DNA of 64,000 nucleotides from Stegostoma tigrinum (GCF_030684315.1 NC_081378.1:49810851-49874850); one strand, 5' to 3'; numbered from the stretch's first letter, positions 1-56,000 are shown. The notes: generated by a model not told the origin, from the letters alone. Made by a program: numbers and translations.

Positions 1-200
1 AAACAGAAGTTGCTGGAAAAGCTCAGCAGGTCTGGCAGCACCAGTGAAGAGAAAAATCAGAGTTAATGTTTCAGACCCAGTGACCTTCCCTCTCTGACGA
101 AGGGTCTAGGCCCGAAACGTCAGCTTTTGTGCTCCTGAGATGCTGCTTGGCCTGCTGTGTTCATCCAGCCTCACATTTTATTATCTTCCCTCAGAACCTG
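1..200. mobile_element. PLE family B terminal fragment (-) interrupted by family A hammerhead fragment (+, 93-184)
   Basis: cttccctc repeated at 85-92 and 185-192; insert nearly identical to 34516-34610. Confidence 0.8.
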
Positions 201-1024
201 TCGGGTTTGTTTAGTGAAACTGACAGACTGGGAAGGTTTCAAGGCGTGAAACTGAATAGCTGTGACACTACTTAAGTGAGAGAGTGTTCTTCCTGTGTTT
301 GACATGTGACTTCCAAATTCTCACAACATCAGTCACCTTCAGCTGCACCTCTAACAGCTTTATGTTGCAGTATTGGTGAGGAAGGGTAACAGCAGCATGA
401 CTAGCAGCGAGTCTCACTCCTCAGCTGCCTGCTCCACTGTGGGCTGAAATGGAAAGGACACAGGAATCCAGCCAGTGGCTGAGAAGCGGACTGTTGCTGG
501 ATGACCTCGCCCACTCTCTCTACTCTCTCCCCAGGCCCCCTTCCCCAGCCAACCTTCTGCTTCTTCTGTCAGGAGAGGAATCAAAGAGTTCAGAAATGGA
601 TTGTTAAGGGCATGAAGCAAACTATTGATTTGAAACGCCTGTGGAGCAGTTTTGGAATATAATTGGCAAAAGTGTTTGAAGGTCGACTATGAAAATGAAG
701 ATGTGCTTTTACACCAAAGCCATTGCAAAATGCTGCACTTTGAAATCTGAACGCAAAAATCTGGAAGCCAATGTGCAGAGAGAAACCAAGATAATATTTC
801 AGGTTGATGAACTTTCATCAGATCTATACTAATTACAATATTTATCCATAAACTAACAGCACTAAAATATCAAACACCAAACAAGATATCATAGATGCTG
901 GAAATCTGAAACAGATCTCAAATCAAAGGTCATTGGCCTGAAACCCTTCTCATTATAGACTTGATACTGATCCTAACAACTCCATGTGCAATTTAAACAT
1001 TGGCCAAATTATATAGAATTTGTA

Positions 1025-1300
1025 CAGTGTGGAAGCAGTTGTGAGTCCACAATGATCCCCCAACCCCCCACGCAGTCCAATAACTCTGCATTTCCTATGG
1101 CTAATCCACCTAGCCTGCATGCCCCAGGACACAATGGGCAATTTAGTATGACCAATCCACCTAACCTGCACATCTGTGGACTGTCAGCTTCCGGACAAAC
1201 CCACGCAGACATGGGAAGATTGTACATACTCCACACAGACAATTGCCCAATGGTGGAATCAAACCCAGGTCCATGGTGCTGTGAGTCAGTGTGCCACTCA
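1025..1300 (-). mobile_element. HE1-like (V-SINE type) tRNA-derived SINE
   Basis: ggctaatccacctagcctgca..cacgcagac..ctccacacagac core and reverse B box; similar to the other copies in the window. Confidence 0.8.
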
Positions 1301-1860: not shown

Positions 1861-2051
1861 TAGTGATAATGGGAACTGCAGATGCTGGAGAATCCAAGAT
1901 AACAAAGTGTGGGGCTGGATGAACACAGCAGGCCAAGCAGCATCTCAGGCTGACGTTTCGGCCCTAGACCCTTCGGTCTAGGCCTGAAACGTCAGCTTTT
2001 GTGCTCCTAAGATGCTGCTTGGCCTGCTGCGTTCATCCAGCCCCACACTTT
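1861..2051. mobile_element. Palindromic PLE-terminus cassette (family A)
   Basis: Inverted arms; 13-bp TSD gtcaacaaattct (1848-1860, 2052-2064). Confidence 0.9.
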
Positions 2052-2079
2052 GTCAACAAATTCTCAACCATTTTAAAAA

Positions 2080-9986: not shown

Positions 9987-10011
9987 CTGTGCATCTTAAA
10001 TACCGGGGACT

Positions 10012-11025
10012 ATGTTCCCAGTGAAGGTTGTGTTTCTCTGTCTTCTGCTCCTTAAGTCCTTGCTTGTCTTGCCCACTGAGCCCAAAGAGGAATTTCTATT
10101 CCGGGACCGCATCAACAACATCGCCGTCAGTACCAGCGGTCAGGTCTTCGTAGCCACTGACAACTCCTTGTATCAGCTGAATCAGGGCCTGGGCCAGGAG
10201 GTGGTCGAGAGCACGGGGCCTGGCCAGGATGGGCCTTGTGAGGAAGAGCATGGTTGTTGTGTCAAGTGGAAAGAAAAGGCCAACGTGAACAAGATCCTGG
10301 TGGTGGACGAGCGTCAGCAGATTGTTCTGACCTGCGGGACGTTGAGGCTGGGGGCTTGTGAGGTTAGGGAGTTGCACAACGTCAGCCACTATGAGAGTGA
10401 CAGGCTCAAGAATGTCGCCCCTGTCTACCCAGAGGCTTCGACAGTTGCCTTTCTAGTAAAAACCACGCGAGTCGATTACTTGGTAACGGCTGTGACTCCT
10501 GTTGGGGAGTCCAGCAAATACTTCCCACCTTCCTGCAAAGGCAACAGCAGTTACTACAATCCCATGAAGGAAGGATTGAACACCATTTTCGTAAGAAATC
10601 CTCGTAGGGGTAACACATTTTTGAGCTTTAATTATGCTGAATTTGGCGACGCAGTCGTAGAGGTGGACGAGCGGACTGCGGACCTCCAGTATGTACAGGG
10701 TTTCCAATGGCAGGAACATATTTATATCTGGCTTAATGTTAACACCTCAGGTCCACAGGTTATCCTCATGAACGTGAAAGAAGATGGCGCAAGTACGACT
10801 TGTACCGGTTTGGGAGCCAACCTGCTCTGCCCTAAGGATAAAAGTCAAACCCTCAGAGTCCTATCCTCCACCGCCTTCAACATCACTTCCTCAGATACCT
10901 TGATGGTCGCGATCTTCTCCGGACAAGGACAGTCTGAGTACAGCCAACTCTGCTTCTATAACATGACTGAGTTTAACACCTACGCCCAGCCTAAAGAAAA
11001 CTACCCCTGTTTTAAGAAGATATCG
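10012..11025 (+). CDS. PLXNC1: Coding exon 1: signal peptide + most of Sema domain (338 codons)
   Basis: ATG at 10012 with in-frame TAA at 9997-9999; hydrophobic leader MFPVKVVFLCLLLLKSLLVLP; Sema motifs; donor TCG|GTAAGT at 11026. Confidence 0.92.
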
Positions 11026-14000
11026 GTAAGTTTTCTAAATGGCAGTTATTTAAAATATATTTTACTGACTATATTGAACCAGCCAAAGCCAGACCAGCAA
11101 AGTGGCTCAGTGATTAGCCCTACTACCTCACAGTTCGATTCCAGCCTCCGCCCACTGTCTGTGTTAAATTCGCAGTCTCCCCGTGTCTGTGTGGGTTTCC
11201 TCTGGGTTCGCCGGTTTCCTCTCACAGTCCAAAGATCTGCAGAATGGGGGGATTAGCCGTGCTAAATTGCTTATGGTGTCCAGGGATGTGCAGGCTAGAT
11301 GGGTTAGCCATGGGAAATGCAGGGATCGGGTAAGGGGGTGGATCTCCTTTGCAGTACTCTTCAGAGGGTCAGTGTGGATTCAGTGGGCCGAATGATCTGT
11401 TGAAGGGGCTACGCTCCAAAAGCTTGTGGTTTCAAGTAAACCTGTTGGACTATAACCTGGCGTCGTGTGATTTCTGACATATTATGTATTCTATGGATGT
11501 TTTCCCTGGAGTTGTAGGTAAAGAGCGTGAAATTACTAAAGGCAGTGTTTACATTTGTTTGACAAGTTTACAGTATGTTGTGTGCTTACGTGACGCAGTG
11601 AGGTGGAATTGTATCAGAGATAATGGGAACTGCAGATGCTGGAGAATCCGAGACAACAAAGTGTGGAGCTGGATGAACACAGCAGGCCAAGCAGCATCTC
11701 AGGAGCACAATTTTCTGATGAAGGGTCTAGGCGCGGAACGTCAGCTTTTGTGCTCCTGAGATGCTGCTTGGCCTGCTGTGTTCATCCAGCCTCACACTTT
11801 GTTGTCTGAGGTGGAATTGCATCTAGTGTTATCAAAAGAAAGCTCATTACATGCATCTAAATTAATTTCAATAACCTGTTCGACATGTTATGACACTTCC
11901 GCGCAGTTGGGAATGAACAAAGACCTATCTGCCCCGAGATAGGGACACAGTACCGACAGTCCACAAGAGCCCACACTAGCTGCACCTTTACTTCATATTA
12001 AGCAGCATATTTAGTACAGTATTAACATTCTGGTCAAAATCACTTGCTTACTCAGATTGAGTGCTTCTTAATCGCATCAGAGGCGTATGCTGGGTATGAT
12101 GCCACAAATGGCTCAATTCCTATCCCTGGCACTTCCGTAAAACATGGTGTGACAACACTAGGTTAGCAATCCAACATTGTCCCGTCATTCCCGAAAACAA
12201 ATGCAGAAGGTGACTGCAATTTTATTTTTCTGTTGCCCCACTCGGCTTCCCAAATGCTGGACAGGAAAATTCGCTGGGACTGAGTGAGAAGGTGCCGCGG
12301 TTGTCTGGGGGAACAGCATCTGATAGCGTTTGATCATCAGTGGACACTATTTCTTAGCCTTTTATTGGCTGAAGTAACAATTAAGGCGAGAGCGAGGGGG
12401 CGCACATCGTTTAAATCTCTTATATAACGAAGTGTGGAGCTGGATGAACACAGCAGGCCAAGCAGTATCTTGTTGTGATTGACTGCGTGCTCACGGCCTC
12501 TCACCGTCCACCCCCAGCCCTTCTGTCTGATCTCTCTCTCTGTCTCATTGCCCAATAGAGCACTCAACTCCCTTGGCCTGTGCCCTTCAGGCCGGCTAGC
12601 TGTTAATTAGACACGCCCTGCCGAAAACGGTAAAATCCAGCCCTTAGTGTTTAGGCTCTAACACCAAGGACTGCACTGAGTGAGCTTTCAGAAATCTATA
12701 CCAGTACTTGACTATTTTCACAACACTAATCTGTTACCAGTGTTCAGTTAATGGTTCAGAATTGTTCAAGGCTCCGTCTCAATAGGAATAGGCTACTCAA
12801 CCCCTCAAGTCTGTTCCACCATTCAATGAGATCATGCGGATCTGTGGCTTCACTCCACAAATCCTCCTTTGGTCCATTTCACTTAATACCTTTCCTTAAC
12901 AAAAATATATATCTATATCGGGTTTAAAATTAACAACGGATCCAGCATCTACTTCTGTTTGTGGAAGAGATTTGCAAAACGCTACCATCCTGTGTGTGTA
13001 GAAGTGCTGTCCAACATCTCTCCTGAACGATCTAATTCTCAGGCTATGTCCCTAGTTCTAAAGTCACCAACCAGTAGAAATAGTTGATCTCTACCTTCTC
13101 TGTCTTTTCATGTTAATATCTTGAAGACATCGATCAGATCACCCTTAACCTTCTAAAGTTTAGAGGAAACAGGCCTCATTTCTATAATCTCTCCTCAAAG
13201 CTTGACGCCTGAAGTCTAGGCATCATTCTTGTAAACCTATGTTGTACTCCCTCTCGGATCCGTATGTCTTTTCTGAGATGTGGTTCCCTGATCTGCTCAC
13301 AATTCTCGAAGTGGAATCTAATCAGGGGTTTTGTATAACTGCAGCATAACTTCTGCATCCTGTATTCCCAAGTCTGTTTGGATATCCACTGTATTTAACT
13401 TCATACCTTCTAGAATAGACCCTGATCTAACCTTTTTTTTCTCCCAAAATAGATAACTTCACGCTGACTTACATTGAACTCCATCTGCCACATTTTTGCC
13501 CAATCGCTAAGTCTTTATAATTTTATGCTATCATCTACACTGTAAAGAATTTTAACTTTGTGTCATCAAAAAATTTGTATACATGGCTTTCTATGCCATT
13601 ATCCAAGTTGTTAATAACAAATGTGAATAATTGAGACCTTAACATAGACCTTTGTAGGTCCCGACTGGTCACATCTTGCAGTTTGATCACATGCTTACTA
13701 TCCCTGCTTTCTGTCACCTATCACTCAATCAATTTCCCAGCTGTGTCAGTAAATTGCCCTCAGTTCCATGGCCTGTACCTTAGCGAACAGTCTCTCGTGT
13801 GGGGCTTTATTAAATGCCTTCTGGAAGTCCTTGTAAACAGCATCCATAGATATTCCCCTGTCCACTATTTTTAATGTAAAATGCAGATTTTTCCTCTCAA
13901 GGGTATAAGCTGGTTTTGTAATGTGTCAAATGTTTCTTTAAATGTGCTGTAATTTACAGTGGACAATCTCTATCTCATCTCATTAAAGTCAGCCTTACTT

Positions 14001-17000
14001 AAATCTAAAGCCTTTAGTAGCTGATTCATGCTTTTAACTTTCAAACATTGAACTCAATCAAGTTATGATCACTATTTGATAAATGTTCAAGCACAATTAT
14101 GTTACTAATTAAATCCAGCTCATTACTTGTTACTAACTCTAATATTGCTTGTCCCCTTGTTGTATCCAGGACATATTGGTGTTGGAAATCATCCCAGCCA
14201 CACTCCACAAATTCATTACCTTCCTGACAAGTGCTTGTCTGCCTCTTCCAATCTAAGTTAGAGTTAAAGTCACTCACTTTGCTATATTTTTGCCCAAATC
14301 TTGCATTTATACAGTCTCGCACTTCACTACCTGGGAATCTGTGCACAGCACTGATTGCAATTTTGGATCCTTCGCTCTTCCTCAACTTCACCTATACATC
14401 TTCCCCTTATTATACCCTCCCTCACCTTTGAAATAATTTTGTTTCTAATCACCAAGGCTACTCCGCCTCCTCTGCCATTTCCCCTGTCCATCCTGTAATC
14501 CTTATAACCTGGTATATTTAGTTACCAATCCACATCATCCTGCAGCCATAATTCAGTGATAGCTATTATAATCCAATCTAACTTGAATTTGTGTCTGCCA
14601 CTCACTTAGTTTATTCCTTATGCATCTTGCATTTGTCTGTAGCTCTCTTGTTTGCGCCATACACTGCAACCTGTCCCTCAGAACTAGTGGGCCATACACT
14701 GTAATCTGTCCCTCAGCACTAGTGGGCCTTACACTGTAAAGCGTCCCTCAGCATTAGAGGGCCATACATTGCAACATGTCCCTCAGCACTGGTGGGCCAT
14801 TCACTGTAATCTGTCCCTCAGCACTGATGCTTTATTCATCTGTTTATCATTTCTCACTTCTGATTTGATCAATCCATGTAGTTTTGTGATAGCCTGTTGT
14901 ACATGAAGTTGGATTTCAGACTGTTTCTTTAAGCGCGGACATGTTGTTTAGTTTTGAAGCTGTATTAACTTGCCCTGAGCCCACGCCCCCACATTAATGA
15001 GTTTACAGTACTTTGACCGCCCTATTTACATTGATCCCCTGCATATTTACAGAATTTCTCATTGCCTTCATGTTGTAGAATCAGATAAACTTAACAAAAG
15101 ACAAGCTGAAGAGTGAAAATGAGGGAAATGATTGGGCTCCATCTCAATCTGTTTCTCCACTGGATCTGTTTTAATTTCTAATTCTATTGGTTATCGATTC
15201 TATTAGAGATAGAAAGAATTGCTGATGCTGGAGTCAGCGATAATGCCATGTGGAGCTGGAAGAACACAGCAGGCCAGGCAGTATCAGAGAAGCAGGAAAG
15301 TTGATGTCTTGGGTCAGGACCTTTCTTTCTGAAGAAGGGTCCCAATCCGAAACGTCCACTTTCCTGCTCCTGTGATGCTGCCTGGCCCGCTGTGTTCTTC
15401 TAGCTCCGCACTGTTATACCTACACTGTTAGCCTTCAAAGAATTCTACGCTTTGCCTTTCTTGCCATTCCACATTGTATGGTGTCACTTGGATATTTTAT
15501 GTGGCAATATGACTTATTTCAAGTTTAGGAACATTGTTCATCCCCCATCCAAAATTTCCCCATCTTCCATCCTCCACGAATGTCAATTCATCCAAAATCC
15601 TATTGCCTTTTTCCTAACTCACACCAAGACCTAGTCACCCTTCACTCCAAGCTTGCTGACTAGCTCAGAATATCCAGCTCCGTTTCTGTAATCTCCTCCA
15701 ACTCTTCAAGACATCTGCACTGATCCAATTTTGAGGCTCTTGCCTTCCTGATTCTCTTTGCCATTTTATTCGTTGCTGTACCTACAGCTGTCTTGCATCT
15801 GGAATTGGCTCTCTCAATATCTCCATGTCTTTGTTTTTGTCTTTGGCCAAAAGTGACCCACAAGTTTTACATGCTTATATAGCTCAATAAAAATTAAGCT
15901 TGATATTGCTACTGTGTAATGGATATTTCACAGCACTGATGCTGCTACACAAATGCAGATTGTTATTTTACTCATAATCAGTTGGAAGATAAAGTCAGCA
16001 AACTGGTTAAAATAATGTCATATCTGAAAATAAATAAGGAATGCTTTTATCACATAATAAAATGCTACAGGGTGAGAAATTTGCTCAGAATTCGATATTC
16101 TTTGATATTATTTCTGTGAAGTTCTTTGGGACACTGATGACTTGGGCTTTTGGTGCTCTTGAGAGTTGCCTTTGGCAGAGGATGGACTCCATGGAAAAGA
16201 TCATCTGTATCACTTCAGTCAACTAAATAGCAGAAATATAAGACGTAGAATGTTGAAGTAGAGTATTTTCTATCTTTATTGACAGTCAGACAGGAATGTG
16301 GAAGGGAGATGGATACAGAATGGTGAAATGTCTCACTTTCAAATGGGATTACAAAATGATAGTTGTTGTAAGTGAGTGATTTCCTCTTTAGGCAACCCTG
16401 AAGGGCAAATTTACTGAGTTATGAAAATTGTTATGAACTTGCTTATCCAACAAAATGATTTATTGATGCTAAAATGTCTAAATCTTTGTGGCTTTTCTCT
16501 TTGTGTCGTTTCCTGCTGTTGTGTAAAGTCATGATTCTGAAAGAGTTTGAGCTCTGCAGAGCTCTGTCCAGTCTGATGATACCATGTAGCTTTGGGTGGA
16601 GAATGATTTGGACCCTGACACAGTCTCTTACTGGAGACACAAGACTTATCTCTTGTTAGTAATAGTTAATATGGCTATGAGTTAGTATTCTTAGTTACTC
16701 TCCAGTAATAAACTATACCTTATCATTTTTTTAAAAAGCCTCTTATTCAAGGTCGATTCTCCATCAACCAACAACTCTTTAGATTAGTGTAGAATGTAAG
16801 AAATAGGAGCAGGAATAGGCAATTCAGCTCATTGTGTCTGCTCCTGCTACATAGGAAGGAGGATTGGTGACAGAACTCTACCCAGCCATAAACTACCAGT
16901 GCTTCAGACCCAGACATGACACCAGAACATCTCAGAGTATCAGTGGTGAGCATGGCACAATTGCTACACTTGTATTACATCAGCAGGGCAATTAGGGATG

Positions 17001-20000
17001 GGGCATGTATACAAGCCTGGCCACTCCCATTCCATGAACAAACTGTTGTGGCAGTTTGGCTGTTCAAGAAATACAAATACTATTTGATGGTTTTGCATCG
17101 CAAATCTCAAATGCAGATCAAATCCAAGGTTCTACTTCAGAAATGCAAGCAGGAGCCTCATTTCAATATTACCATAAAGCCCACAGTTCTTTAAGGCAAC
17201 TTTCAGCACCTGTTAAACAGAGGTACTAACCAACTCAGCAGTCAGCAGGATCTCTTTCAGATGGGTTTCAGGCCACTGGCTGCTAAATCAGCGATTACTG
17301 CAAATGTTTTTGACCAAATTATATAAAATTTAAACAACAGGAATCGAGGGAATAAAGGTCTCCTCTCCCAACCATGTTTTTCAGTTGTTAGCATTGGTTC
17401 ATTCAGATATGAATGATTCCCATGTCAATTTTATTTAATTGCTTTTCGACTGCTTTTGTAATTCAATGTGAAGATTCATCCAGCTTCACACTTTATTATC
17501 CTGAAGATTCATTGATAAGTTTTTAACATATTTCCCCCTCCCCACCTTTTAGATTTATAGAATCCCTACAGTGTGGGAGCAGACCTTTCAGCCCATCAAG
17601 CCCACACTGACCCTCCAAAGAGTATTCCACCCAGACCCACCCCTGTAAACCACCCAGCCTGCGCAGACCTGTTCACTATGCACAATTTAGCATGGTCAAT
17701 GCACCGAACTTGCACATTTTTACATGTGCAAGGAATGAGGAAACTGAACAAAATCCATGCAGACACGGGGAGAACATGCAAACTCTGCACAGATAGTCGC
17801 CCAAGGCTGGAATTGAACCCAGGATGCTGGCACTGCATAACTTGTAGTTTTATTTCTGAGCTTTAGTATCTCTTTCCACCTTGTTGTTGTAGAATTTTAA
17901 TTTGTCTGTGTGCTTACTATCCCTAAGGTTTATGCTGTCCTGGGAAAACTTGGTGAATTTTATGCCTGGTTTAAATGAGTGAAATTGCCATTCTGTTTCC
18001 TTAAGTTGCCTGTAATGCAGTTTATGCATGTTTAAAAAGTTGAGAAATTTCCCCGTCACAGGGATCGTAAGTGCAATGTTAACATATTTTTTGACTTTTT
18101 TATTTTGGTGAACGTTTATCACCAACAACGCAGACACAACTGTTTGTGTATCTGACAGCTAGGGAAACAATTTTCTGTGTTTTGTGCAGATGCCTGTTGA
18201 AGGATTGATTATCTTCAGAGATGGCAGGCAGAAAGACATGACACAACATCCTTTTTCTTGTGAATGTACGTTGTGAACTACTGCGCTGGATGTTATTGTG
18301 AATGTATTTACATTGCACTGAAGGAGTGCTGTATTGTTGAAGCTGACATCTGTCAAATGGGCTGTTAAGCTGAAACCTTCTGCCTGGTGAATAGCCACAG
18401 AATTGTTTTTCAAAGAGCAGGGGAAGTTGTCCCCTGTGTTGAGACACTTATTCATCATGTCAACCAACAAACTGATTATCTGGTCATGATCATGCGGGCA
18501 GTGGGAGTTTTTTGTGCCCTAATCGCTGCCGTACTTCCTACATTACCATGTTTTGAGAGGTTATAACGACTGCTACATCAACTCAGCTTCTAGCTTAAAG
18601 GGAAACTTGTGGTCATGAATATGAAAGATAACCGTGATGGAAGTAGGAAATGTAGGTGGGAGCCGAATAAGCAAGTTACTTGCAGGATTGAAAACTGAAC
18701 AAAGCACAATACTGGTACATAAAAGGAAGCAATAGGTTTTATTTCATAAACATATAAAATGTATATAGATAGTCAGAGAGAAGAGGATCACTCGACAATG
18801 AAGGAGGATTGTGGGGGATAGAGCTATAAGCAGAAATATATTAAATATAAAGTGTCAGAGTTTACAAATGATTCTGGAGGTGAGAATATGTGTAGACTAG
18901 TTCTGATGAAGGGCCACTGGACACAAAACATTAACTTTGTTTCTCTCTCCACAGATGCTGCCAGAGTTTCTTCAGCACTTTCTGTTTTCGTTTCAGATTT
19001 CCAGCATCTGCGATTCTTTGCTTTAGAAAATCTGCTATTTCACTTCCACCGTCCTGCATTACCCCCACATTCCTTAATAATATTAATGCCACAATGATTT
19101 GATCTGACTTCCAAAGATTTGTACCTTAAGTGAAGAAATTTGTCCTCATCTCAATCCCAAATCTATGATACCTTCCTTCTCAGACTGATCCCTATATCCT
19201 GATTCCAAAAGCAGGTAAAATGTCTCCCAATTTGTACCCTGTATCACCCCTCAAATATTTTATATATTTCATGGGATCACCTTTTTAAAAAAAGTTCTTA
19301 AGGAATATAAACTTAACCTGCTTAATTTCACCCAAGCTCTACATTATACTCCAGGTCTGCACTTATGAAGGATCTGTGTAGTTATTAGTAAGATGTCTTT
19401 TAATAGTGCAATCCGGTTGTAACAAAAAGTGTTCAGTTTAATTCCTGAATTGTTTACATGTTGACTTCCTATAATTTACATGCAACAACATTCTGTTCCC
19501 TCTGGGTATTAGTGTTTCTCATTTCAAAGATATACCATTTTTTCACAATTCCCTACATTATATTCTACCTGCCACCTTGCTGCCCACTCATTTAACCTAT
19601 CTAAATTCTTTTTGTAGCTCCTTTGCATCATCCTCTCAGCTTATTTTTTCCAGCTAATTGTGCCATCAGCAAACATGTGAACTTATGAAACAAGAGTAGA
19701 AGTAGACCATCCCCACCTATCTTCTCCTCTATCCATCTTTGATCCGTCTCCTCCTCACTCCCTATTTATTTCAGAGCCCTCTCCCCTTCCCCCTTTTCTG
19801 ATGAAGGGTCTAGGCCCAAAAACGTCCGCTTTCCTGCTCCTATGATGCTGCTTGGCCTGCTGTGTTCATCCAGCTCTCCACCTTGTTATCTCAGAGCTAA
19901 TCTGCTTGTGTTTTGATGCCCATCAGCCATCCAAGCCCAGCAACCTTTCATTCCCTTGCCTAACAAGAATCTATCCACCAATGTCTTCAAAAAAATTCAG

Positions 20001-38000: not shown

Positions 38001-41000
38001 AATGTTAAAGTCTATTATTAAGAAAGAAATAGGATACTTTTAGAAAAGCTGAATGGAATGCAACAGTCAATTGTTTTGCAAACGGGAAATCATGTTTGAA
38101 AAATTTTCCAGAATTCTTTGAAGATATAAGAAACAAAGTTGATAAGGGAGTCCCTTGTCCACTCCACACTCCCAACCAGCCCCACCACCCCCGGCACTTT
38201 TCCCTGCAACCGCAGGAAGTTCTATGCCTGACCCTACACCACCCCCCTCACCCCCATTTCAGGCCCCAAGAAGACCTTCCACATCAAACAAATGTTCACC
38301 TGCACATCTGCTAACGTGATATACCGCATCTGCTGTTCCTGATGTGGCCCCCTGTACATCAGGGGAAACCAAGTGGAGGCTTGGGGACCGCTTTGCACAG
38401 CACCAACACTCGGTTCGCACTAAACAACTGCACCTCCCAGTCGCGAACCATTTTAACTCCCTTTCCCATTCCTTAGACAACATGTCCATCATGGGCCTCC
38501 TGCAGTGCCACAAAGATGCCACCCGAAGGTTGCAGGAACAGCAACTCATATTCCGCTTGGGAACCCTGCAGCCCAATGGTATCAATGTGGACTTCACAAG
38601 CTGCAAAATCTTCCCTCTCCCAACTGCATCCCAAAACCAGCCCAGCTTGTCCCTGCCTCCCTAATCTGTGCTTCCTCCCACCTATCTGCCCCTCCCACCT
38701 CAAACTCCACCCCCATCTCCTACCTGCCAGCCTCATCCTTCCCCCTTGACCTGTCCTTCCTCCCTGGACCATACTATCACCTCCCTAACTCCCCACCTAC
38801 ACTCACCTTTACTGGCTCCACCCATGCCTCTTTGACCTGCCTGTCTCCTCTCCACCTATCTTCTCCTCTATCTATCTTCCATCCGCCTCCCCCTCGCTCT
38901 CTATTTATTTCAGAACTCCCATCCCGTCCACCATTTCTGAAGAAGGGTCTAGACCCGAAACATCAGCTCTGCCGCTCCTCTGATGCTGCTTGGCCTGCTG
39001 CATTCATCTAGCTCTACACCTTGTTATCTCAGATTCTCCAGCATCTGCAGTTCCTACTATCTCTTGATAAAGGTGAACTGGTTGGTATAGCGTATTTAGA
39101 TATCCAGAAGGCATTTCATAAGGTGCCACATAAAAGGTAAATGTGCGTGATAGGCATTCGCGGCTTTGGGGATAACGTGTTAACATGGATTGAGGATTTG
39201 TTAACATGCAGAATTGGGATTAATGGGTCTTTTTCAGGTTGGGAAGTTGTAACTAGTGAAGTACCACAAAGATCAAGCCTGGTGTCTCAAGCATTATGAA
39301 CGATTCAGAGGAGGAGTCTGTGTGTAATGTATCCAAATTTCCTGACAAAAACTAGCTGGGAGAGCATGCTGTGATGAAGATGTAAGGAATCTTGCAGGGG
39401 AAATAGATAAGTGAAAGGAGTGGACAAAAACCCGGCAGATGAAGTTTAACGTATGAATGTCTGAGACCATGCACATTTGGTAGCAAGAATCAAAAGGCAG
39501 GCTATGATTTTAACAGGGAGAGTTTCCAAAAAAGAGGCAAAACGGAAGGATCTAGAAAGTTCTTGTACATCAAACACAAAAGGTTGACATGCAGATGCAA
39601 CAAGTAATCAAGAAAGCAAATTTTTTGTCTTTATTGCTTGGGCCTTGGGAGTTTAAAACTAGGGGAGCCCTGTTACAACTGTAGGAGATGCCATACCCAG
39701 AGTACTGTGTAGATTTTTTGGTCCCCGTATTTAAGAGAGGATATGCTGGCATTGGAGTCAGTAAATGTGGAGCTGGAAGAGCACAGCAGATCAGGCAGCA
39801 TCTGAGGAGCAGAGAAGTCAATGTTTTGGGCCAAAACCCTTCATTAGGACTGGGGAGGGGGAGACGAGCCCAGAAATAATTAGGGGGAAGCGGGTGGAAC
39901 TGGCGGAAGGTAGGTGGGCTGGAGATAGGCGGATGCAGGTAGAGGATTATTATGGTTGGTCAATGGGAAGGGTGGAGTGGATAGGTGAGTTGGAAGATGC
40001 ACAGATTGTGGATAGAAAGATTTTGAAGTTGGTGAAGTCAATATTCAGGCCATTGGACTGTAAGGTCTCAAAGCAAAATATGAGGTGTTGTTCTTCCAGT
40101 TTACATTTGGTCTCACTCTGGCATTGGAGCAGGCCAAGGACGGACATGTCACTAGGGAGTGGGAGGGGGAGTTAAAGTGGATGGCAACTGGAAGGTCGGC
40201 TTAGTTGGTGCATGCAGAGAGCAGAGGCTCTGCAAACTGGTCCCTGAGTCAGCATTTTGTCTCCCCGGTGGAGAGGAGACCACATCAGGAGCAACAGATA
40301 CAGTAGATCAGGTTGGATGAAGTACAGGTGAATCTCAACCGGATCTGGATGGATTGTTTGGGGCCTGAGATGGAGCTGAGAGGGAAGGTGTAGGGGCAGG
40401 TGTAGCACTTCCTGCGGTTGCAGGGAAAAGTACTGGATATGGTGGGGGGGTTGTTGGGGAGTGTGGAATTGATGGGGGACTCTCGGTGTGAATGGTCCCT
40501 GTGGAAAGTTGATGGGGTGGGAAGGGAAATATCTTTTTGGTGGTGGGGTCTGATTGTAGGTGGTGGAAATGTCAGAAGATAATGCATTGGATTTGGTTTG
40601 TCGGTGGGGGTGGGGTGTATGTGAGGACTAAGGGACTCTATCCTTATTGTTGTTGGCAGTTCAAAAGCAATTTGCTGGACTAATTCTGAGGATGAAGGGG
40701 TTGACTTATGAAGATTGACTGGACAGGTTATTCCTTTATTCATTAGAGTTTAGAAGAATGAGGGGTGATCCTGTTGAAACACACCAAGATTCTGAGAGGA
40801 TTGACTGGGTAACTGTTGAGAAAATGATTCCAGTTGTGAGGAAATCTCAAACTCACAGACATAGTTGCGGAATACATACTTAATACTTGAACATGAAAGA
40901 TTCTTTTCTCTCAGAGGATAGTGTAATAGGATAGTGAGGATACTTCAGTATCTGAGGAGCTGCAAATGGTGCTGAACATCGTGTAACTGTTGGCAAACAT

Positions 41001-44000
41001 CTCCACTTCTAACTTTATGACGGAAGGAAAGTCAACAATTAGAGGTCAATTGGCCTAGGAAACTATTCCGAGGACCTCCTGCAGAATGTCCTTGGGCCGG
41101 TGATGAACTTCCAGTCAGCAGAACAGTGTCTCACGTGATTCCCATTGACATTATGAGGGCTGTTTGACGATAACTTTGGTCCAATGTGGCCTTGATGTTA
41201 AGTGCAATCATGTATTTGTTGAGTTCATCTCTTTTGCCCAAGTTGGATTAAGGCTACAATGAATTCTGGAGTCTAGTTGCTATGTGTCAGTGAGTAGGTT
41301 ATCACTGTGTAAATTCTTCCTGACAGTACTGTTGACAACATCTTCCATCCTTTTGTTGATCATGGGGAGTCGATTGTTAAGGCAGTAATTGGCAGTGCTG
41401 AATTTGTCCTTCTTGATAGTGTAACAGAGCCTTGAATTTTGCTGGTATATTGTTCTTGCTTTACCGCACTAAATGTTACAGTTTAAACCACCTTTCTCTG
41501 CAACATAATGCCTTGTTTAGGCAGTATTAGGCTGCACTTTTACTGGTTGCTATGTTGATGTAGAGTTGATGGGCCAAATGGTCTTTTCTGTGCTGTATGA
41601 ATCTATGAACCAGTACACAGCGAGCTGATTACTGCCTAAGCGCTCCATAGCCAGTAAGATTCATGCCTTTTGATTTTAAGAGCAGAAAATTACAGACCTG
41701 TGAATTCAGTATGCTATGGAGGTGTGCATCTTATACTGAGATCTCAGTCCTTAACAGCAGCTCAGTCTTAAAATAGTGAATTATGCAACTGAGGCAAGGC
41801 AGGACTATTGCTGATGTTTTATTTACAATGTCTTCAGAAGCATAAATTTTTTTATGTTGCCTTTCCTGCAAATAACCAACAGTGAATCACTGTTGATCAC
41901 TCTGGGAGCAGAGAAAGTCACAGTTTGTATTTCGTTGTGTCCATAAACATGCAACTTAAGAGCTTCACTAGGGAAGCTGGCCAGTGTAGGCAAGAATGTG
42001 GACTGCACTGAAATACGGAAGGATGTTAAAAATTTGCAGAGTCGGAAGCAATCAGCCGATTAAATCCCATAGATCCATAGATGTAAGAAGTGTTGGATTT
42101 TTGCAGCAGGGATAAGGAGGCTATTTAATTCTTCAAAGGAAAAGAAAAGCTACGAGAAGCAAAAAGATCCAGCAACACAAAAAAAAATGCAAGTTGGAAT
42201 ATATCTGATCCCAAAGGGATGTAGTGAAGGTGAAGTTGCTCTATTCCAGGTGCAGTTTCAGGTGTCGGTGGGAAATGGAGGGGTTATGAAAACGTGGGCT
42301 GGCCCACCCAATAAAGCAGCGATTTATATGCAACTCTGTCATTTCCATGAATTGTAGTAGCAACTCACAATGTAGACTCCCCTCGCCAGGGGGTCTTACT
42401 GCACACTGGATGACTATATTGCAGAGCATCTCTGTTTAGTCCAAAATAACCCTAAATTTCCAGTCAGCTGCCACTTTAAACTTCTGCTCCCATCGCACTC
42501 TTCACTCCTTGTTAGCCTAATGCAATAAAGTTCATAGGAAGCTTGAGGACCAGTCCCTTCTATTTTTAGTGAGTGCTTTATTGCCTTCTGGACATAGCAT
42601 TGCATTTAACATTTTTAGATCTTAACCACTGATGCATTCTTTTCAGATAGTCAGTGGTAACAATGTTTAAACACTCCTTCCATCCAGTCGGGACAGACTC
42701 TCACTTTCTGGTTAAGATTCCCAACATCTGCACGATATTGATTTTGTTTTAGTTTTAATATATATATTCAAATTTCCTATCGTGATCTCAATTGCTGCTT
42801 CCCCTATCTTCACTTTAATATCTTCACTCAATCTGCATCCTGTTTTCAAATAGACAAGTGATCTTTGCAAATTTCTTTTCTTCCTGTTCATTCCTATGAA
42901 ACTTGGAATCTTTTTGATGTTCTGAACTTTTTTTCTGAAAATATAAAATGTGCCCCCCCGTTCTACAAATCTTGCTTTTCAGAAGGGCCCAGCGTAAATC
43001 TCCAGCTCCCCGGATCTTTCTCCCTCTCGCGCTCTCCAATTATAAACTAATATTCAAGACGAGGAGGCAACATACAAACCACACGAATGTTAATTAAAGT
43101 AGCTCACAGCACCAGCTTCAGCAAAGCAAAATTTCAACCTGTAACTTTGCTGGCATGTGTAGTGTGTGTGGGCTGTTCTCTGCTGTTTGGGAATTATAAC
43201 TGTGAATTGCAGTTAACTGCTCAGTTCCCAAGTCTGTTTGGAACCATTACAGTAGTAGATGTGTGCAGTAAGTGTAACATGTACCCACTATATCTGAGAT
43301 AACAAAGTGTGGTCAGAGATAATGGGAACTGCAGATGCTAGAGAATCCAAGATAACAAAGTGTGGAGCTGAATGAACACAGCAGGCCAAGCAGCATCTTA
43401 GGAGCACAAAAGCTGACATTTCGGGCCTCGATGCTTCATCAGAGAGGGGGATGGGGTGAGGGTTCTGAAATAAATAGGGAGAGAGTGGGAGGTGGACTGA
43501 AGATGGATCGAGGAGAAGATAGGTGGAGAGTAGAGTATAGGTGGGGAGGTAGGGAGGGGATAGGTCAGTCCAGGGAGGATGGGACAGGTCAAGGGGACAG
43601 GATGAGGTTAGTAGGTAGGAAATGGAGGTATGGCTTGAGGTGGGAGGAAGGGATGGGTGAGAGGAAGTAAAGGTTAGGCAGGCGGGGACGAGCTGGGCTG
43701 GTTTTGGGATGCAGTGGGGGGAGGGGAGATTTTGAAGCTGGTGAAATCCACATTGATCTACAATATCTGCTAGGCTTTGTCTAGAGTGTAAATAGGGGAT
43801 GCTTCTAGATTTACAAATGACAATTGTTACCACAGAGCCGCACAGCACAGAAAGGAGTATGGCATGTGGAAACATATCTTCATTCCTTCATAATTGCTGG
43901 GTTAAAATGTGAGCCCACTTCTAAGAGTACTGTGGGGGCATCTACACAACATGGAGGACAGGCACCTCACAACTACTCTCGCCGAAGCACACTGAATGTA

Positions 44001-47000
44001 TTAAAAATACAGTGTTTCTATCTATTGATTGTATATTTGCAGTTTTTATGCTTGCATTCCATAGCATATTTCTTCATACTGCTCCATACTAAATTGCTCC
44101 ATACTAAATAGCCTACTCACTACATGAACCTGCCATTCTTGCTAAAGTCACTGCACCATTTCCTAAAGCCCCTGTTTTTATATTCTTACTCTTAACTCCA
44201 AACGAGGTTTCTGAATACTAAAATCCAACACCAACCCTTGGGATATCCCAAGTCCAACCTTACAACACTCCAAGAAATGCTCATTAGCCCTGAATCTCCC
44301 CAGTTTTGAGCCCAGAATACATGATTCCAATGCCAGCGATGACCACCAGAGCCATGCACACGGTCAGATGATGCACATGCCATCAGTCAGTGTGACAGGA
44401 ACCTACTGCAGGAGTGAGCCTCTGTGTATTCAGCCTCTGGGCAGTGGCAATAAAAGGTAGCAAAAGCAGCGACTTCGAACCAGGTGGTGGTGAAGAAACG
44501 TGAAGCCCACAGGAAGGTAGAAAATAAAACACAGGGAAGGCCAACAGCAACAAAGACCAGCGTTTCCATCTCAAGACTGATGGGTAAATGTTGCTTTACA
44601 ACTTCAGCTTTAATATAGGAGATTGTCCCAAAACAGCAGCTTGTAATAGAAGGCACTGTGCTTAGGTTGGAATATTAAAAGATATAGAGGGATTGGTCAG
44701 GTGGGCAGGCCAGTGGCAGATGGTATTTAACCCTGATAAGTGTGAGCTGATGCCCTTTGGAAGAAGAAACGGGATGAGGGAGTAATAAGGAATGGCAGAA
44801 CATTGGTTAGGTTAGAGGAACAGAAGGATCTTGGGTTAATTATTCTCAGGTCCCTGAAGTTGGCAGAGCACATGAATATAGTAGTTAAGGAAGGCATGCG
44901 GGACACTTGCTTTCATCCGTCATGGCATAGAGAATAAGATCCAGCAGCAATGTTGGAGTTGTACACACCTGAAGTACTGTATGCAGTTCTATCATGTCAC
45001 TACAAGAAGGATGCAGTAGGACTAGAGGAGTTACAGAGGAGATTCACCAAAATGTTGCCTGGGATGGAGATATAGAGCTTTAAGGAGAGACTCAAAGACT
45101 TGGCTTGTTTTCTTTAGAGCAGAAAAGACTGAGGGGAGACAAGACGGAGGTGTAAAAGATTATGATAGGTATGGACAGGGTGAATAAGGAGCAGCTGTTC
45201 CCCTTGGTTGAGGGGTTAAACACGAGAGGTCATAGCTTTAGGGTAAGGGGCAAGGCATTCAGAGGGGATTTCACTCAGCGCGTGCTGGGAGTCTGGAGTG
45301 CACTGCCAGGGAAGGTAGTGGAAGGCTGGAAAGCTTACAACCTTTAAAAATATTTGGATGAGTACCTCAAATATCATAACATTCACGGGTATGGACATGT
45401 GTGGTAATTTGGGGTTGGTGCACTTTTGGTCATAGTTATATCGATGCAGATTTGAGGGACTAACGGGCCCTTTCTGCTCAGTGTGATTCTATGAATCTAT
45501 TCCCGAATGACGTTTATAATGGGGCCACCTTTCCGGGCAATGTGACCACATGGGCAGCACCATCTCTCCGACAGGCAGCTGCTGTCCTGTTGCTTGACAG
45601 TGACACAGAATGATGGCAACGTGTTCCTGTCGGCGCTCGCTAACTGCGCAACTCAGTAGTGCCATTGACGATAAATGCAACCTTTTCTGTCCATGTTGTG
45701 ACATTTCTTTTGGAAGTAGTTTGAATTTTTCTGTTCATGCCGTGACATTTCCCCTGCAGCAAGTTTGATTGAGACAATGTATGAAGATTGCCCTCAGGCA
45801 ATGGAGATGCCTTCTAAAGTATTCGTCTTCTTATGCCCCATAGGTGAGAAGGATAAAAGTGGCTAACTGTACACAATACAGGTCGTGCACCGATTGTTTG
45901 TCTGCACAGGATCCATTCTGTGATTGGCACGTTGTGGAGAAAAGGTCTGTTTCAGCTACAGAGGCACTTAAAAGTTCAATTACAGTCTTACAAGATATTA
46001 CTCACATACCATTTGTGTTGCTCTGATCCGTAGCAAAATAAGAACAAAACTTTGAGATGGAGTAATCTATTTGTCGCAAAAAGCCTTATCCTCTTTAGAT
46101 TCGCTCATTTTTGGATTGCCCTACTTCTGCCACCTATCTTAGTCTTTCTCTCCATTCTCAGGATAACAATCATTTGTATTCACTGAATTTCCAATTCATG
46201 TGAAATTTCAAAATGGCCTACTTTGAAATTTATTGAGATCCTGATCAAAATGGGGGATTTTATTTTAATTTCTTTGGTAATAGCTGTTGCTGGACCATTT
46301 ATTAATGTTACATTGAAACAACTCCCTCAATATAAAAGGTATTTTTAAATTTTATTTCTCCCCACGTTTTAATGTAATGTTTATGTTTCATGTTACGTAT
46401 ATTTTTTGTCACTCATATTTTCCTTTTATTAAAAAATAGCCTTGTATTCTTGGGTGTCGGCTAGTCATTCAAGTGGAGGAGCATTCAGAGAGGCTGTAGA
46501 CCAGACTGGTTAAAGATGGTAACAAGGTGTGGAGCTGGATGAACACAGCAGGCCAAGCAGCATCGGAGGAGCAGGAAAGCTGACGTTTCGGGCCTAGAAC
46601 CTTCATCAGAAAGGCCTCTGATGCTGCTTGGCCTGCTGTGGTCATCCAACTCTACACCTTGTTATCTCAGTTTCTCTGGCATCTGCAGTTCCTGCTGTCT
46701 CTGGTTAAAGATTATGACTCGTTTGTTTTGGGATATCGGTGCCCTGGTTAAGTCTCTACGACAAGATGAAGTTTACTTTAACTCAATCAAATAGAGCAGA
46801 AGTGCTTGTTCAACACCGTGGGAATGATTGGCACCTTATCATACGCCTGTCTAACACCCCTCTCATAATTTAAGCCCAGGGATAATTCTGGTCAACCTAC
46901 ACTATACTTCCTATGCTATACTGTCAAGGATGCTGCCTGTGGAGACTGCCACTAGTCAACTCAGCTTGACCCATGGCCAGTGAGAACGTTCAAGGACCAA

Positions 47001-50000: not shown

Positions 50001-53000
50001 CCTGTAACTCGGCTCCTTATTTTTTTATAAACCTCAATTAAATCTTCCCTCAGCCTTCAGTTTTCCAAAGGGACCAACACCCCTGGCAATGCAACTTTTC
50101 TTCATAGCTGTAATTCTCCCACGACCTGGTAATGTCCTTGTAAATTCCCTCTGTACTCTCTTCAATGTAATCATCTCCTTCTTACAAGATGAGCAAAACT
50201 GCACACAGTATGCACACCAGAGCCTTGCTGGTGTTTATACAGTTCCAGTGTAGCCTACCTGCCTATTCCGTGTCTTAGCTAAGTATCCCATTTACCAATT
50301 CTTAACCACTTTGTATAGCTGTCCTACCTTCCGCAATTATTGCCTTTATCAGTCAAGGCATAGAGGTTAAGAGCAGTGAGGCTATGCTGGAACTGTATAA
50401 GACATTAGTTAGGCCACAGCTACAGTATTGTGCGCAGTTCCGGAATCCGCATGCGAGGAAGGATATGATAGCACTGGAGGGGGCGCAGAGGGGATTTACC
50501 AGGATGTTGCCTGGGCTGGAGACTTCCAGTTCTGAAGAGAGATTGGACAGACTGGGATTGTTTTCCTTGGAGCAGAGAAGACTGAGTAAGGCCATGATTG
50601 AGATGTATAAGATTATGAGGGACATAAACAGGGTATACAGGAAGAAACCTATCGCCTTGATAGAGAGATTAGTGACTGGGCCATAGATTTCAGGTAAGGG
50701 GCAGAAGGTTTAGGGGAAATGTGGGGAAAATATTTTTCACCCAAAGGGAGGTGGAAGTTTGGAGCTCACTGTCTGTAAGCGTGGCAAAAACTCTCACACC
50801 AGTTAAAAAGTATTTAGACATGCTCTTGTGATGCCATAAGACCAAAAGACAAAGGAGCAGAATTAGGCCAATCAGCCCATCGATCATGTCTGATATGTTT
50901 CTGAACCCTATTCACACGCCTTATCCTGCCCAAGGCATGCAAGTCTATACCAAGTGCTGGAAAATGGAATTCAAACATTTAGGTAGTTGTGTTTGACCGA
51001 TGCTGACTTGATAGGCAGAAGGACTTTCTCTTGTGCTGTAGCCCTCTAGGACTCTATGACATATGTTCCGAGGCCCTTCAGTTCCTCTGTACATCTGTGC
51101 ATGTACCTCACACTTCCCCACATTGAATGCTATTTGCCACTTTTTGCTCACCTGAACAGTTTAGTGCTATTTTTCTGCAGTTCACAGCTTCCTTCTTCTT
51201 CATCACATGATCAATTCCTGTATCATCTACAAACTTTGTAACCATAACCCCTGCATTCAAGTCTGAGTCATCATCCAAGATGAATTAGTCCAACTGCAGA
51301 AAATTCCTTTTGTAATCTACCCAATTTCAAATCTAGTCACCATCACATTGCCCAGATTAAACCAGGCAAATCAGAAATCCCGCTAAGTGCGACCATATGA
51401 GCTGCAGGACACAAGGTGCTGACATAGCTCCATTCCTTACAAATTAAACTCATAAAAAAGTGAAAACTTTGCTTTTATGTATCTTTATTTTAGGAAAAGC
51501 GACAACTAGGAGGTGACCAAAAGAGGTATTTAAATATCATGAAGAGGTTTGGCAGGATAAAGATAGTGAAGATTATTAGGGAAACTTAAAATAGCTTGCC
51601 TTAAATTTAAGACAGTCACTAAGAAAAAAGTGGTTAGAATTTGGGAATCATTGCAAATTACAGTCATGGAGTAAGTGAATAAAATAACACAAGATAACAA
51701 AGTGTGGGGCTGGATGAACACAGCAGGCCAAGCAGCATCTTAGGAGGACAAAAGCTGATGATTAGGGCCTAGACCCTTTTCTGATGAAGGGTCTAGGCCC
51801 AAAACATCAGCTTTTGTGCTCCTAAAATGCTGCTTGTCCTGCTGTGTTCATCCAGCTTCACACTTTGTTATCTTGGATTCTCCAGCATCTGCAGTTCCCA
51901 TTATCTCTGATCACAAAAATAACACAGTTGTATTTAACAAGAACTGAATAAAAGGATGAGGGAGAAAGGAATGGAAGGCTATGTTGATACCTTTAAATGA
52001 AGAGAATGGGAGGAATCTTGCATGGAACATAAAGACTATCCTAGACCACTTGGACCAAATGGACTATTTCTACATTCTACGTAAAGACACTATGGAAATG
52101 TTGTCGTTGCAATGTCTTAAGCCTGTGGTTTCATTCTGTGACCGTATTTTCATGCGAAACTTTTTTTCACTAGCTCTTTACAGTCGAAGTAACGTCAAAA
52201 TTCAACAATGTCATTCAACAAAACGCAACATGTACACTGACGAATGTTGGAAACAAGAAAGTCATTTGCACAGGCAACTTCACCACTGAATGTCCCTGCA
52301 ATGTTTCCGAGAACCACGCTCAGATCAAAGAGCAGCCAGGTACTCAGCCAACACTACTTTTAATTCCAGCTGGAGTGCTCAGGTTTTAGGAAATCCTTGA
52401 ACTGATCAAAGTTGCTGACCGTCCTGCAAAGTAGAGGCTGTTCAAGTTTGAAAATAGATAGAGGAAGGTCCTCTATTTAGCCCATTGTCAAAGCTTTCCA
52501 CTTGTTGCAACAGTATTACTGTTTAATCATTAGATTTACAGCCAATGAAATACTGAAATCCTCCTTGTTCCCGGTGTCCCCTGATTTTAAACCAGCCCAT
52601 GTGGCGGGTTCGACTGGTTAAAATTGTGGTAGGTGGCGCCCAGGGCACTTTGCTGCCCCATCACCGTTCTAACCTCCATGATTCTGACAGTGTGGAGCTG
52701 CCCATGGCAGGCAGGTGGGCACCTCATTGAAATGAGATAGTTGCAGCCCAAAGATGTTGGACACCACACTGCCATTTTAACACCCTGGGTTTGGAGGCCG
52801 CAGAAGCTGTAAATCCTCCAGTATAAGATGGTGACATTCAGCATGGAGAGAGGAGAGGGACAGGTATGGGTGGCCTAGAAGAGCAGAAAATCCCTTCCTG
52901 GCAAAAAAGATACCTTGGGGCCTTTTGATTTTCCCCGCAGGATTTCTGTCTCTTCTACTCCACTCCACAACACCTGTCCCCTCATCAACCATATTGGAGG

Positions 53001-56000
53001 GACTATTCCCTTCTGCCTATTGATTTCCCGCTGTTCTGATTTCAGAAAATTCATTGTGTAATCTAGCCGATTTCAAATCTGGTTACCACCACATTGCCCA
53101 GATCAGTAAAAAGAATTCAAAACAATCCTGACGGAGGGAAGCACAGAAATATGAATGAAGTCTGGGTTTTAAAGAGGGTTGGGCCTGAGACCCTGAAACC
53201 ATTTGACCCCATCCTGAGATAATGCAGCGCCTCACATTTTGCAAAGTGAGATGCCTTTAACAGATGCTTCTTGTGTGTTCCTTGTAGATCCAATGATTAT
53301 TGAGGTGTCTATTAAATCTGGCTCCTTGAATTTTGACAGCCAGTCCACAGTCCATAACTGCTACAAGATTGCAACGTCTCAGCAGACAAACACTCCGTAA
53401 GTGTGGCACCTCATTTAGATAAAGTGAAGCCTGTGATTTAGTCAAGGAGAAGCAGAGAAAAGTAAAATCCAAATGATTTCTGTAAAGCATTTGTACTAGT
53501 CACTAAAAGCACCTGTATCTTCTGTATTATTGAGCACTCGAGGAATTTAGGCACTGCTTCAGGCTAGGATTAAGTGCAAGATCGGAGTCTTTACAACAAG
53601 CTCCCTTCTACTAATAGGACAAGGCTAAATTGGAACTGGTCCTTTCTGTACTGGCCAATCAGGTGAGGGATGTGACCACACTGAGTGGCTACTGATACTT
53701 ATGGAAATCTATGTTCTGTCGTCAACGTAGTTGTCGCATTGATTTAATTAATCTACCCTGCATTCCTAAACATTGGGCATTGCCAGTTAATTTGCTAACT
53801 GTCCATGTTTGAGAACTGAAGCAGAATAATTAAACGAGTGATTTGCCAAAGGTACTTGTTTCAGACAGTAGTAGCTCAGTAGTAGCACTTTCACATGTTA
53901 TAATCCCAGACAAGACTGCCACGTTTTTGGTATGCTCTGGTTAGGGGCCAATAAGGTTTCGCTTAAAGTGGATGAAGTTTGAGATTCTAAGTACTTAACA
54001 AGAGAATAAAGTCACGTGGCTCCTGGATTTGATCAATCAAACAAGTTTATTATATAAAGTTAGAATATAAAAATAATTCACATTATGTGTACAACTCATA
54101 CTTGAACATTCAGGATTGACATCAGCTAAATATGAATTAACATTGAAACTGTGATCAAGATCCCTAGAGATTGAACTTTAATTGGTCAAATATGTCAAAA
54201 CAGATGCGACACAGATGTTACTGACCTTTGAGTCACTAAATCCCATTTAAACCCAAGAGAACAAGGTGTAGAGCTGGATGAACGCAGCAGGCCAAGCAGC
54301 ATCAGAGGGGCAGGAAAGCTGACGTTTCAGGCCCAGATCCTTCTTCAGAAAACTGCATCTGCAGTTCCTACTATCTCTGAAACCCATTTAAACCCAATCT
54401 CTTTTACAAAGGGTTCAAATTCTTCCATTTCAAAGATCTAACTTTGGAATGCCCTTGAAATGTTTCTGACTCAAATGCTTCAATCACTGCTCATTTAAGC
54501 TCTTCCCCAGACACCAGATTCCCCACAGCTTGTGATACAGCTACCACCCTATTTCTCCAAGCTTCAATCAATCTCAACAACTTCAAGGAAATGTTCATTT
54601 TAAGGGCTTCTCTCTGACATTCTTGGCTGCACTGAATCGTCAAAGGCTCCAGAGACTTTTCTTTTCCTAATTGCCAGGAGTCTGCTAACAGCTTCAGGCT
54701 GATTGAAGCCATTTCTTTGCTCTAATACTTTTCCAGTTTCAAACCATAGCTTACTTCTCCCAGCGAACACTCAGATAAATTTAAAACACAGAGTATTCCT
54801 AAACTCCACTAATCTCCATGACAACATAGCCTGCTCTGGGCTACTCATAATCTGAACTTTAGGCCTTACAGAATTCTTTACAGCCAATTTGGATCAAACT
54901 CCCTTGTTACTGAAAACTTTACAGATCCAGTGAATTAAGTCACCTTACTGGTTTTACTGTTCTGTCTCTTGTGATTCTATATAATAAATATGATTAGCCT
55001 TCTGAATGGTCATTTATTTTATGTCTCTGACAATCCTTAAAGCCCAGCACATTAATTATCTTAGTTTCTTAACCCCTGAAAGCAACATTACTTGAACCAC
55101 TAAGTACCTTAGACTTCAGTGTTTTGATTGCAGTTATCCAATTTTGTCCTAATTGACTTTAATTTTGTAAGTCAGGAGTTAAATTACTAAAACACACAAA
55201 TCTCTGAATAAATATTCACAAAGCACATCTGAGTCAGGCAGCTAACTCTCGCTCAGAAGCAATATACAATGTCAATGTTTCAGTTCAGTAGGCCTTTTTA
55301 GCATCCAGGCCATTGACTTGAATGTTAACTCTGTTTCTCTTCACAGAGGCTGCTTGGCTCAGTGGGTTTTCCAAGCCCTTTTTTAGTTCCCAGTCCCACT
55401 CCTGTGACTTAAGCCAGGCTGTCAATTTCAGTACAGTACTGAGGAAGTACTGCCCTGTTGGAGGCACTCAGCGGATGTGATAAATCCCATGGGGAAAATG
55501 ACCAACAGTGTACCATTTAGCTAACTAGCATGTACCATATCCATCCCATTATCAACACATCCAAAGGGATGTAAGTCTTTGGAATTTTGCAATCCAGAGA
55601 ACTGTGGATGTTCGGTCATTGAACAGATTCAAGACTGAGATTGATATCTTTTTGGCATACAAGAGAGATCAAGGTTTATGGGGATGGTAAAGTAAGTGGA
55701 ATTGATGGAAAAGATGACCAACACATGGGCCACATTGGATGAGAACTAGGCCAGGTGAAATAACTTACAACAGAACCATGGTTCAAGAGAAATATCGTCT
55801 TCTTTACTCATTGGAACCAGTTGAGGAGAATGTTGTGTGAGAGTTGTCATGCAAGATTATGCAGGAAAAACAGTGACCTGATTCCAGCCTGTTCCTTCAG
55901 ATTGGAAGTCCTTACTATGTTATATAAACCAGCTGGGACACTGGTGGTTAATGCAGGAGAGTGTCCATGTCCCAATGTTGTTATGCTGTACTTTGGTGTT

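Follow-up and report, generated by a model that had tools for sequence, protein, structure and literature searches.

Short arms of putatively Neptune-type PLEs in the genome of Stegostoma tigrinum end recurrently at one position, about 4 nt upstream of the CUGAUGA core of a minimal type-I hammerhead, and in young arms this edge is mostly preceded by a G. The edge very probably reflects a discrete end of the RNA template, and we assign a probability of roughly 0.6 to the reading in which this end is a capped transcription start. Its link to the ribozyme is positional, the RNA end coinciding with the 5' edge of helix I, and not catalytic. The PLE replication cycle and the role of the hammerhead are presented as open questions in parts of two papers (PMC8557442, PMC11167929). 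An RNA end placed to the nucleotide by thousands of insertions names the template of the commonest product; self-cleavage is excluded as the source of that product, a single CAGE peak and a single extra C that depends on the cap are predicted, and Neptune-type and Poseidon-type behaviour are set apart inside one genome. The element type, the hammerhead, the tail and the inverted partner are already known; the count of the extra G, the Neptune/Poseidon contrast, the test by pair classes and the test by pass-through copies are new here. A literature search, which covered few subscription journals and did not extend to Repbase or Dfam notes, turned up nothing published on the edge, the clade contrast or an extra G in PLEs (Fig. 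S2 of PMC11167929 may bear on these).

Element families and arm breakpoints

The window, the whole 64,000-nt stretch analyzed here, lies on contig C33 of the 3.2-Gb genome. The family A reference is a real copy, a long, 5'-truncated element at 31976..34645 (+) comprising RT, a CX4CxxC linker, a GIY-YIG-type C-terminus, 3' UTR, hammerhead and tail, and it passes the core. Position 0 is the first C of its CUGAUGA core (window 34517). Its minimal type-I hammerhead spans 34513..34548 (+), with -4 at 34513, the core from 34517 and the predicted cut at 34544/34545. The match of the ORF to RVT_1 is weak (E 4e-5, under the Pfam cut-off) and GIY-YIG is unmatched in Pfam; VYCIHC..CGFLYIGET..R was read directly and DKG is present, two patterns that we take to be GIY-YIG-like or PLE motifs. 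The GIY-YIG-like motif is preceded by the linker CNHRKCYTC (CNRRKCYTC in a second copy), and a CX2-5CxxC linker upstream of GIY-YIG is given as a mark of Neptune/Nematis in the accessible part of PMC8557442. On sequence grounds, families A and B are classified as probable Neptune-type elements, A by its Cys linker and B by an A-like C-terminus with a decayed linker.

In full-length copies the unit runs from the hammerhead (0..+27) through a short ORF (about +46) to the main ORF (about +165), so that the 0..+128 piece closing every copy is the head of the next unit; family A 3' ends group near +92 and +128. The PLE hallmarks of partial tandems (pLTR), an inverted 5' partner and an optional 30-40 bp tail are present. 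The short ORF (MLLGLLCSSS..., at +46..+128 in L110, L114, L117 and L119) separates the hammerhead from the main ORF and, in four of four copies, is in frame with the latter and closed by one stop codon. Elsewhere in the window, 10000-11256 (+) holds a 418-aa open frame with a hydrophobic N-terminus and no Pfam match, presumably resembling a plexin/semaphorin-type first exon.

The original prediction had named eleven breakpoints in the window, with breaks placed at -1 to -3. All eleven were found, at most 1 nt off, and their clustering at the hammerhead core was confirmed, but the actual edge lies at about -4 and three families are mixed: A (94, 11715, 15329, 51781, 46609(-) and 54348(-)), B (18903, 23029 and 37079, the last with a degenerate core) and C (29301). 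The young, short, untailed family A arm at 88..187 (+, about -4..+93) sits in an older inverted family B arm with the target duplication TTCCCTC, and part of the 'tct' at 94 is therefore common to the target. Other family A edges are found at 11711..11807 (+, starting TTTT-CTGATGA and ending at +92), next to a tailed arm at 11615..11710 (-, +33..+128); at 15325..15404 (+, older, about -3/-4), next to an older arm at 15205..15325 (-, +5..+127); at 46520..46614 (-, -3..-5, ending at +89), with a tailed partner at 46620..46703 (+, +45..+128); at 51774..51909 (+, TTTT, -4, tailed to +128), next to an arm at 51690..51778 (-, +6..+94); and at 54250..54352 (-, TTTT, -4), whose partner piece at 54353..54379 (+) is tail only. 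Family B contributes a solo arm at 18899..19019 (+, AGTT-CTGATGA, -4), an arm at 23024..23133 (+, -4/-5) that shares microhomology with its inverted partner at 22916..23027 (-, from about +13), and the arm with the degenerate core CTG-TGA at 37079..37216 (+), near a short inverted piece at 37029..37066 (-, +60..+97). The family C arm at 29298..29404 (+, starting CAC-CTGATGA at about -3, its 3' end approximate) adjoins an inverted arm at 29229..29302 (-, from +7). The junction at 1975 does lie inside stem II, as had been proposed, between family A arms beginning at +9 (1975..2051, +, +9..+85) and at +5 (1862..1974, -, +5..+127, the tailed partner). Five copies in the window that pass the core had been omitted: 19710..19891 (+, family A, to -87), the reference copy at 31976, 38148..39064 (+, older family A, to -820), 39763..39897 (-, older and family A-like, to -50) and 43314..43729 (-, family A, to -280).

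Family A was sampled in the window and in 160 stretches of 10 kb (1.664 Mb together), giving 340 arms, of which 302 were kept after dropping 10 that run into the ORF and 28 with under 75% identity. Among the family A arms that reach position 0, 87 of 174 end in -7..0 (hazard 0.0625/nt), compared with 4 of 87 just upstream, in -20..-8 (0.0035/nt). For young arms the corresponding figures are 35 of 77 at the edge and then 0 of 42 in -20..-8. The breakpoint distribution, which was checked for flatness, is not flat, and the edge is no mere pLTR start, since pLTR starts spread from -12 to beyond -1371. Inward of the edge, family A start counts fall from 50 in +1..+10 to 18 in +11..+20. Upstream homology resumed in one of 176 short arms, so the edge is no alignment break in the CT tract. 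Measured against the nearest long copies, exact extension is most often 4 or 3 bases (27 and 25 of 106), lengths that are biased slightly long because the best of five references was taken. The arms retain the -4..-1 bases of their own subfamily (CTCT, TTTT, ATTT or AGTT). Across the genome, 9,356 young arms have their first element base precisely at -4, preceded by two bases foreign to the element, and extrapolation from 87 per 1.664 Mb gives about 170,000 edge arms for family A alone. Tailed and untailed arms stop at the edge alike (38/75 versus 49/99), and a fixed-length ruler was ruled out because the two share this position. Five long arms (L082, L090, L146, L149 and L160) begin at -167..-172, possibly a weaker second hotspot.

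In family A, at about -23 (window 34489-34495 and the homologous positions of other copies), an extended pyrimidine tract leads into a conserved TTYCAG that resembles a 3' splice site, and family B has an acceptor-like TTTTCCYAG at about -13. Splicing was rejected as the source of the edge because AG is missing from -6/-5 in family A, -22 is the start of none of the young arms and the short copies lack a common upstream exon; spliced copies were not seen at the sites of either family.

The edge is common to the Neptune-type families A and B, as family B, with a different upstream sequence, shows it at 43/68. It seems to be present in family C as well, whose arms start at about -5..-3 in a sample without a long C copy. 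The Poseidon-type family D, which carries a hammerhead but no Cys linker, stops at the edge in 1/19, so the hammerhead alone is insufficient for an edge. The hammerhead features found (CUGANGA core, stem II, GAAA, palindromic ACGU and NUH) match the description of the min-HHR in the accessible part of PMC4209133, and an Rfam scan gave no hammerhead match and only chance hairpin matches. Helix I has 4 bp in family B, 3 bp in D, three of four positions in family A with ATTT and 2 bp in young A, where a minimal type-I hammerhead would have 4-5 bp, and the -4 edge is its 5' edge in family B and in A with ATTT. TCT, BBCABW and YYANWYY are initiator motifs of Pol II starts. TCT matches at -4 and likewise at -18, -41 and -43, BBCABW is unmatched at -4 in the scanned B and ATTT examples, and YYANWYY fits both by eye.

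The base preceding the edge

Exact genome-wide counts gave 5,035 for G followed by CTCT and the core, and 2,408 with A or T in place of G. Among the first 100 matches listed for young family A starts at -4, the base at -5 is G in 82, T in 13 and A in 5, a hand count over matches that are the first on C1 and not a random set, against a background of 27%. Together with the sharp edge, this excess supports the proposal that the template RNA has a defined 5' end. The G is absent from the element itself, and GG occurs in just 14 of the 82 G matches listed. When matches with A at -6, in which the partner could have supplied the base, were left out, G was present in 25 of 34 (p=2e-8). An interior control, starts at +12, had G at background level (28 of 100 matches listed), and the control total of 527 is an underestimate because the pattern leaves out the palindromic joint.

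In the older families the base A dominates at -5, largely at palindrome centres like AAA-TTT, and G is barely above background (p=0.06 for ATTT starts, p=0.03 for AGTT starts). Among 100 matches listed for each, G outnumbers T by 34 to 7 before ATTT and by 36 to 19 before AGTT. G thus exceeds T where the first element base is A, and the extra G is not a mirror base; palindromic P-bases were rejected on the rarity of T at these same starts. In young family A, 57 of the 82 G matches listed read AG-CT. The 30 sampled G loci include 21 with an inverted partner able to supply the G, 6 solo arms and 3 long copies, and the 30 sampled A/T loci 13 with a partner, 10 solo arms and 7 long copies; when scaled up, about 56% of solos carry G, a figure that rests on small numbers. 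In solo arms the target duplication often takes in the G as its final base (2-3 of 6), which fits annealing of an extra C of the cDNA to a target G (1-nt microhomology) and leaves no clean untemplated base.

The extra G is found across several downstream haplotypes, and the full-length copy L119 likewise begins G+CCCT-CTGA. A switch to the 3' cleavage product (AG of AGCU) was also considered and rejected, as it fails for family B and older family A. At the junctions of L230/L231, L240, L105 and L172, a short repeated head-start piece is followed by G and the arm, which suggests that copying aborted repeatedly, or that jumps occurred, where the RNA ends.

Paired arms and copies that pass the edge

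The 76 head-to-head pairs comprise 65 short-short, 10 long-long and one mixed pair, whereas independence would give 18 mixed pairs. One arm is tailed and the other untailed in 72 of the 76, which suggests that a single event uses both start sites in a coupled way. All 65 short-short junctions are distinct, and either arm of a pair can be the longer (21 versus 23, with 8 ties).

Selection of arms from the ORF side left 29 after one tandem array and one duplicate had been merged; 16 of these continue upstream of the edge, 11 end inside it and 2 end at it. The resulting edge rate (2/18) is below that of head-initiated arms (p=0.007 versus young arms, 0.002 versus all). Since 16 of the 18 ORF-side copies pass the edge, a general stall is unlikely, and the low edge rate shows that most long templates have no end at -4. 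Long copies carry G at -5 in 24 of 100 matches listed, against 10 of 100 at -6 (p=0.014; G:A ratio p=0.06). Two of the long copies with G at -5 looked recombinant, and 7 of the 24 come from one inherited sub-lineage of family A (L241, L248, L286, L291, L296, L301, L304 and L318, with G, once A, at -5), which may have captured its G once. Strand transfer carrying a cap G into long copies is unsupported in view of this shared inheritance.

A tandem array, L150-L155 (G000:C4:126.925-126.933 Mb), consists of 654-bp repeats (-247..+408) that each contain a hammerhead, and is retrozyme-like; smaller tandems are present in L091 and L200. The stubs are solo or head-to-head and not tandem hammerhead units, the arrangement by which non-LTR retrozymes are defined. 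Five copies (L141, L148, L149, L150 and L160) have 3' ends at +408..+646 within the ORF, which suggests further internal initiation sites.

Origin of the template end

A capped start would place the RNA 5' end at -4, at the 5' edge of helix I, with the ribozyme foremost in the transcript. The RT would bind the head of the RNA, initiate internally at +92 or +128, copy about 95-130 nt until it runs off the 5' end, and add one C opposite the cap; the cDNA ends, in many cases trimmed first, would be joined to the target or to one another. Starts at +1..+60 may be edge ends trimmed back during joining, and the long, pass-through and tandem copies may derive from templates without the -4 end, either multi-unit read-through or circular RNA (a circle model for the template of long copies is described in a section of PMC4209133). 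Internal initiation in these Neptune-type elements is suggested by analogy with a Poseidon element in vitro. Several observations count against the cap: addition of an extra C is conceivable at template ends of every kind, with or without a cap, the initiator motifs are weak, the G is weak in the older families, and inverted partners can supply it at most of the sampled G loci. The ORF-side edge stops are also fewer than expected if most full-length RNA began at -4.

The same end might be real but processed, with a nuclease trimming a longer RNA to the protein-bound hammerhead and the RT adding a non-templated C. This would agree with the coincidence of the edge and the 5' edge of helix I in family B and in A with ATTT, with the equal offset in families whose upstream sequences differ, and with the weak initiator motifs. 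However, the edge is lacking in family D despite its hammerhead with a 3-bp helix I, it is sharpest in young A despite two canonical helix-I pairs, and a single G, with GG in a small minority of the matches listed, fits a cap; we therefore regard processing as possible but unlikely. RT stalling on a long RNA, caused by a structure or protein block just 5' of the hammerhead, confined to copies initiated nearby and followed by fold-back or joining of the cDNA, is improbable. Fold-back would also yield matching pair classes, and a stall that depends on nearby initiation accounts for the passage of ORF-side copies. However, RT stops at structure are expected on the 3' side of the fold and the edge is on the 5' side, the extra G exactly at -5 is left unexplained, young breakpoints are absent from -20..-8, and tailed and untailed arms end alike. 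Stalling at the ribozyme, offered in the original prediction as an alternative, is not supported as the main cause, edge stops being rare both in ORF-side copies and in the hammerhead-bearing family D.

An edge inherited from one or a few SINE-like master loci already starting with G(-5)/-4 is favoured by the long-copy sub-lineage that inherits its G, but this explanation is already largely refuted and has a very small probability: the short-short junctions are all distinct, the short arms follow the -4..-1 bases and haplotypes of each subfamily, separate families show the edge, and the six 5'-flank matches that recur in a set of 51 unpaired edge arms consist of inverted pieces of the element. 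Hammerhead self-cleavage as the process that sets the template end is scarcely credible and, for the main peak, refuted. The predicted cut lies 32 nt downstream of the edge, and young arms starting at +28..30 number just 1 of 119, against 35 at the edge, which bears out the claim that the break is not at the GUC cleavage site. Genome-wide, 4,202 arms begin at +28 and may include a minor cleaved class, but 59 of the 100 +28 matches listed are AAAGCTTT-type palindrome centres, formed via AGCT microhomology.

If the capped start is taken further, the first 32 nt of the mRNA would consist of cap and hammerhead, and the RT would make a strong-stop-like cDNA that becomes a stub or, by template switch, gives rise to long copies and tandems. 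In that case the ribozyme would act as a decapping switch and not as a unit-length cutter, and the stubs would be fossils of transcription starts; we consider this extension rather doubtful. Retroviral minus-strand strong-stop DNA initiates near the RNA 5' end, runs off to the cap and gives a short cDNA with a fixed end. The stubs, in contrast, are target-primed and integrated as dead copies, and onward strand transfer is unsupported here.

The elements resemble the EN+ PLEs covered in part of Craig 2021 (PMC8557442) in their ORF with RT and GIY-YIG-type domains, partial tandems, head-to-head arms, minimal hammerhead and a tail confined to one arm. That account describes 5'-truncated copies with an inverted 5' partner, a pLTR and a 30-40 bp tail, and truncation there is variable, whereas here half of the core-reaching arms end in one 8-nt window behind G. 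The Poseidon element PAc of Anolis, as described in a portion of Frangieh 2024 (PMC11167929), initiates internally at two sites and needs the RNA downstream of them; hammerhead cleavage is dispensable, and that portion reports no RNA-seq ends at the cut site and maps neither an RNA 5' end nor a breakpoint peak. The two start sites in the head of its unit are comparable to +92 and +128 and the tail here. In contrast to PAc, the edge families are Neptune-type, and the Poseidon-type family D is without an edge. The PAc start site is, from the same portion, independent of strand in vitro, whereas almost every pair here has exactly one tailed arm.

In D. virilis Penelope, as given in parts of PMC2377424 and PMC4209133, an internal promoter in the pLTR starts at 371 and an intron spans 416-491. 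A processing boundary, the 3' end of this intron, likewise lies at the 5' end of helix I, but transcription begins some 120 nt before the intron end adjoining helix I, and starting at helix I is therefore no universal rule. For L1, an extra G at most full-length 5' junctions has been ascribed to the cap, and the same is described for processed pseudogenes, in the accessible text of PMC11702581. The single extra G at a run-off end is common to both systems, but in L1 it marks the rare full-length copies, and here it marks stubs of about 95-130 nt, the commonest product.
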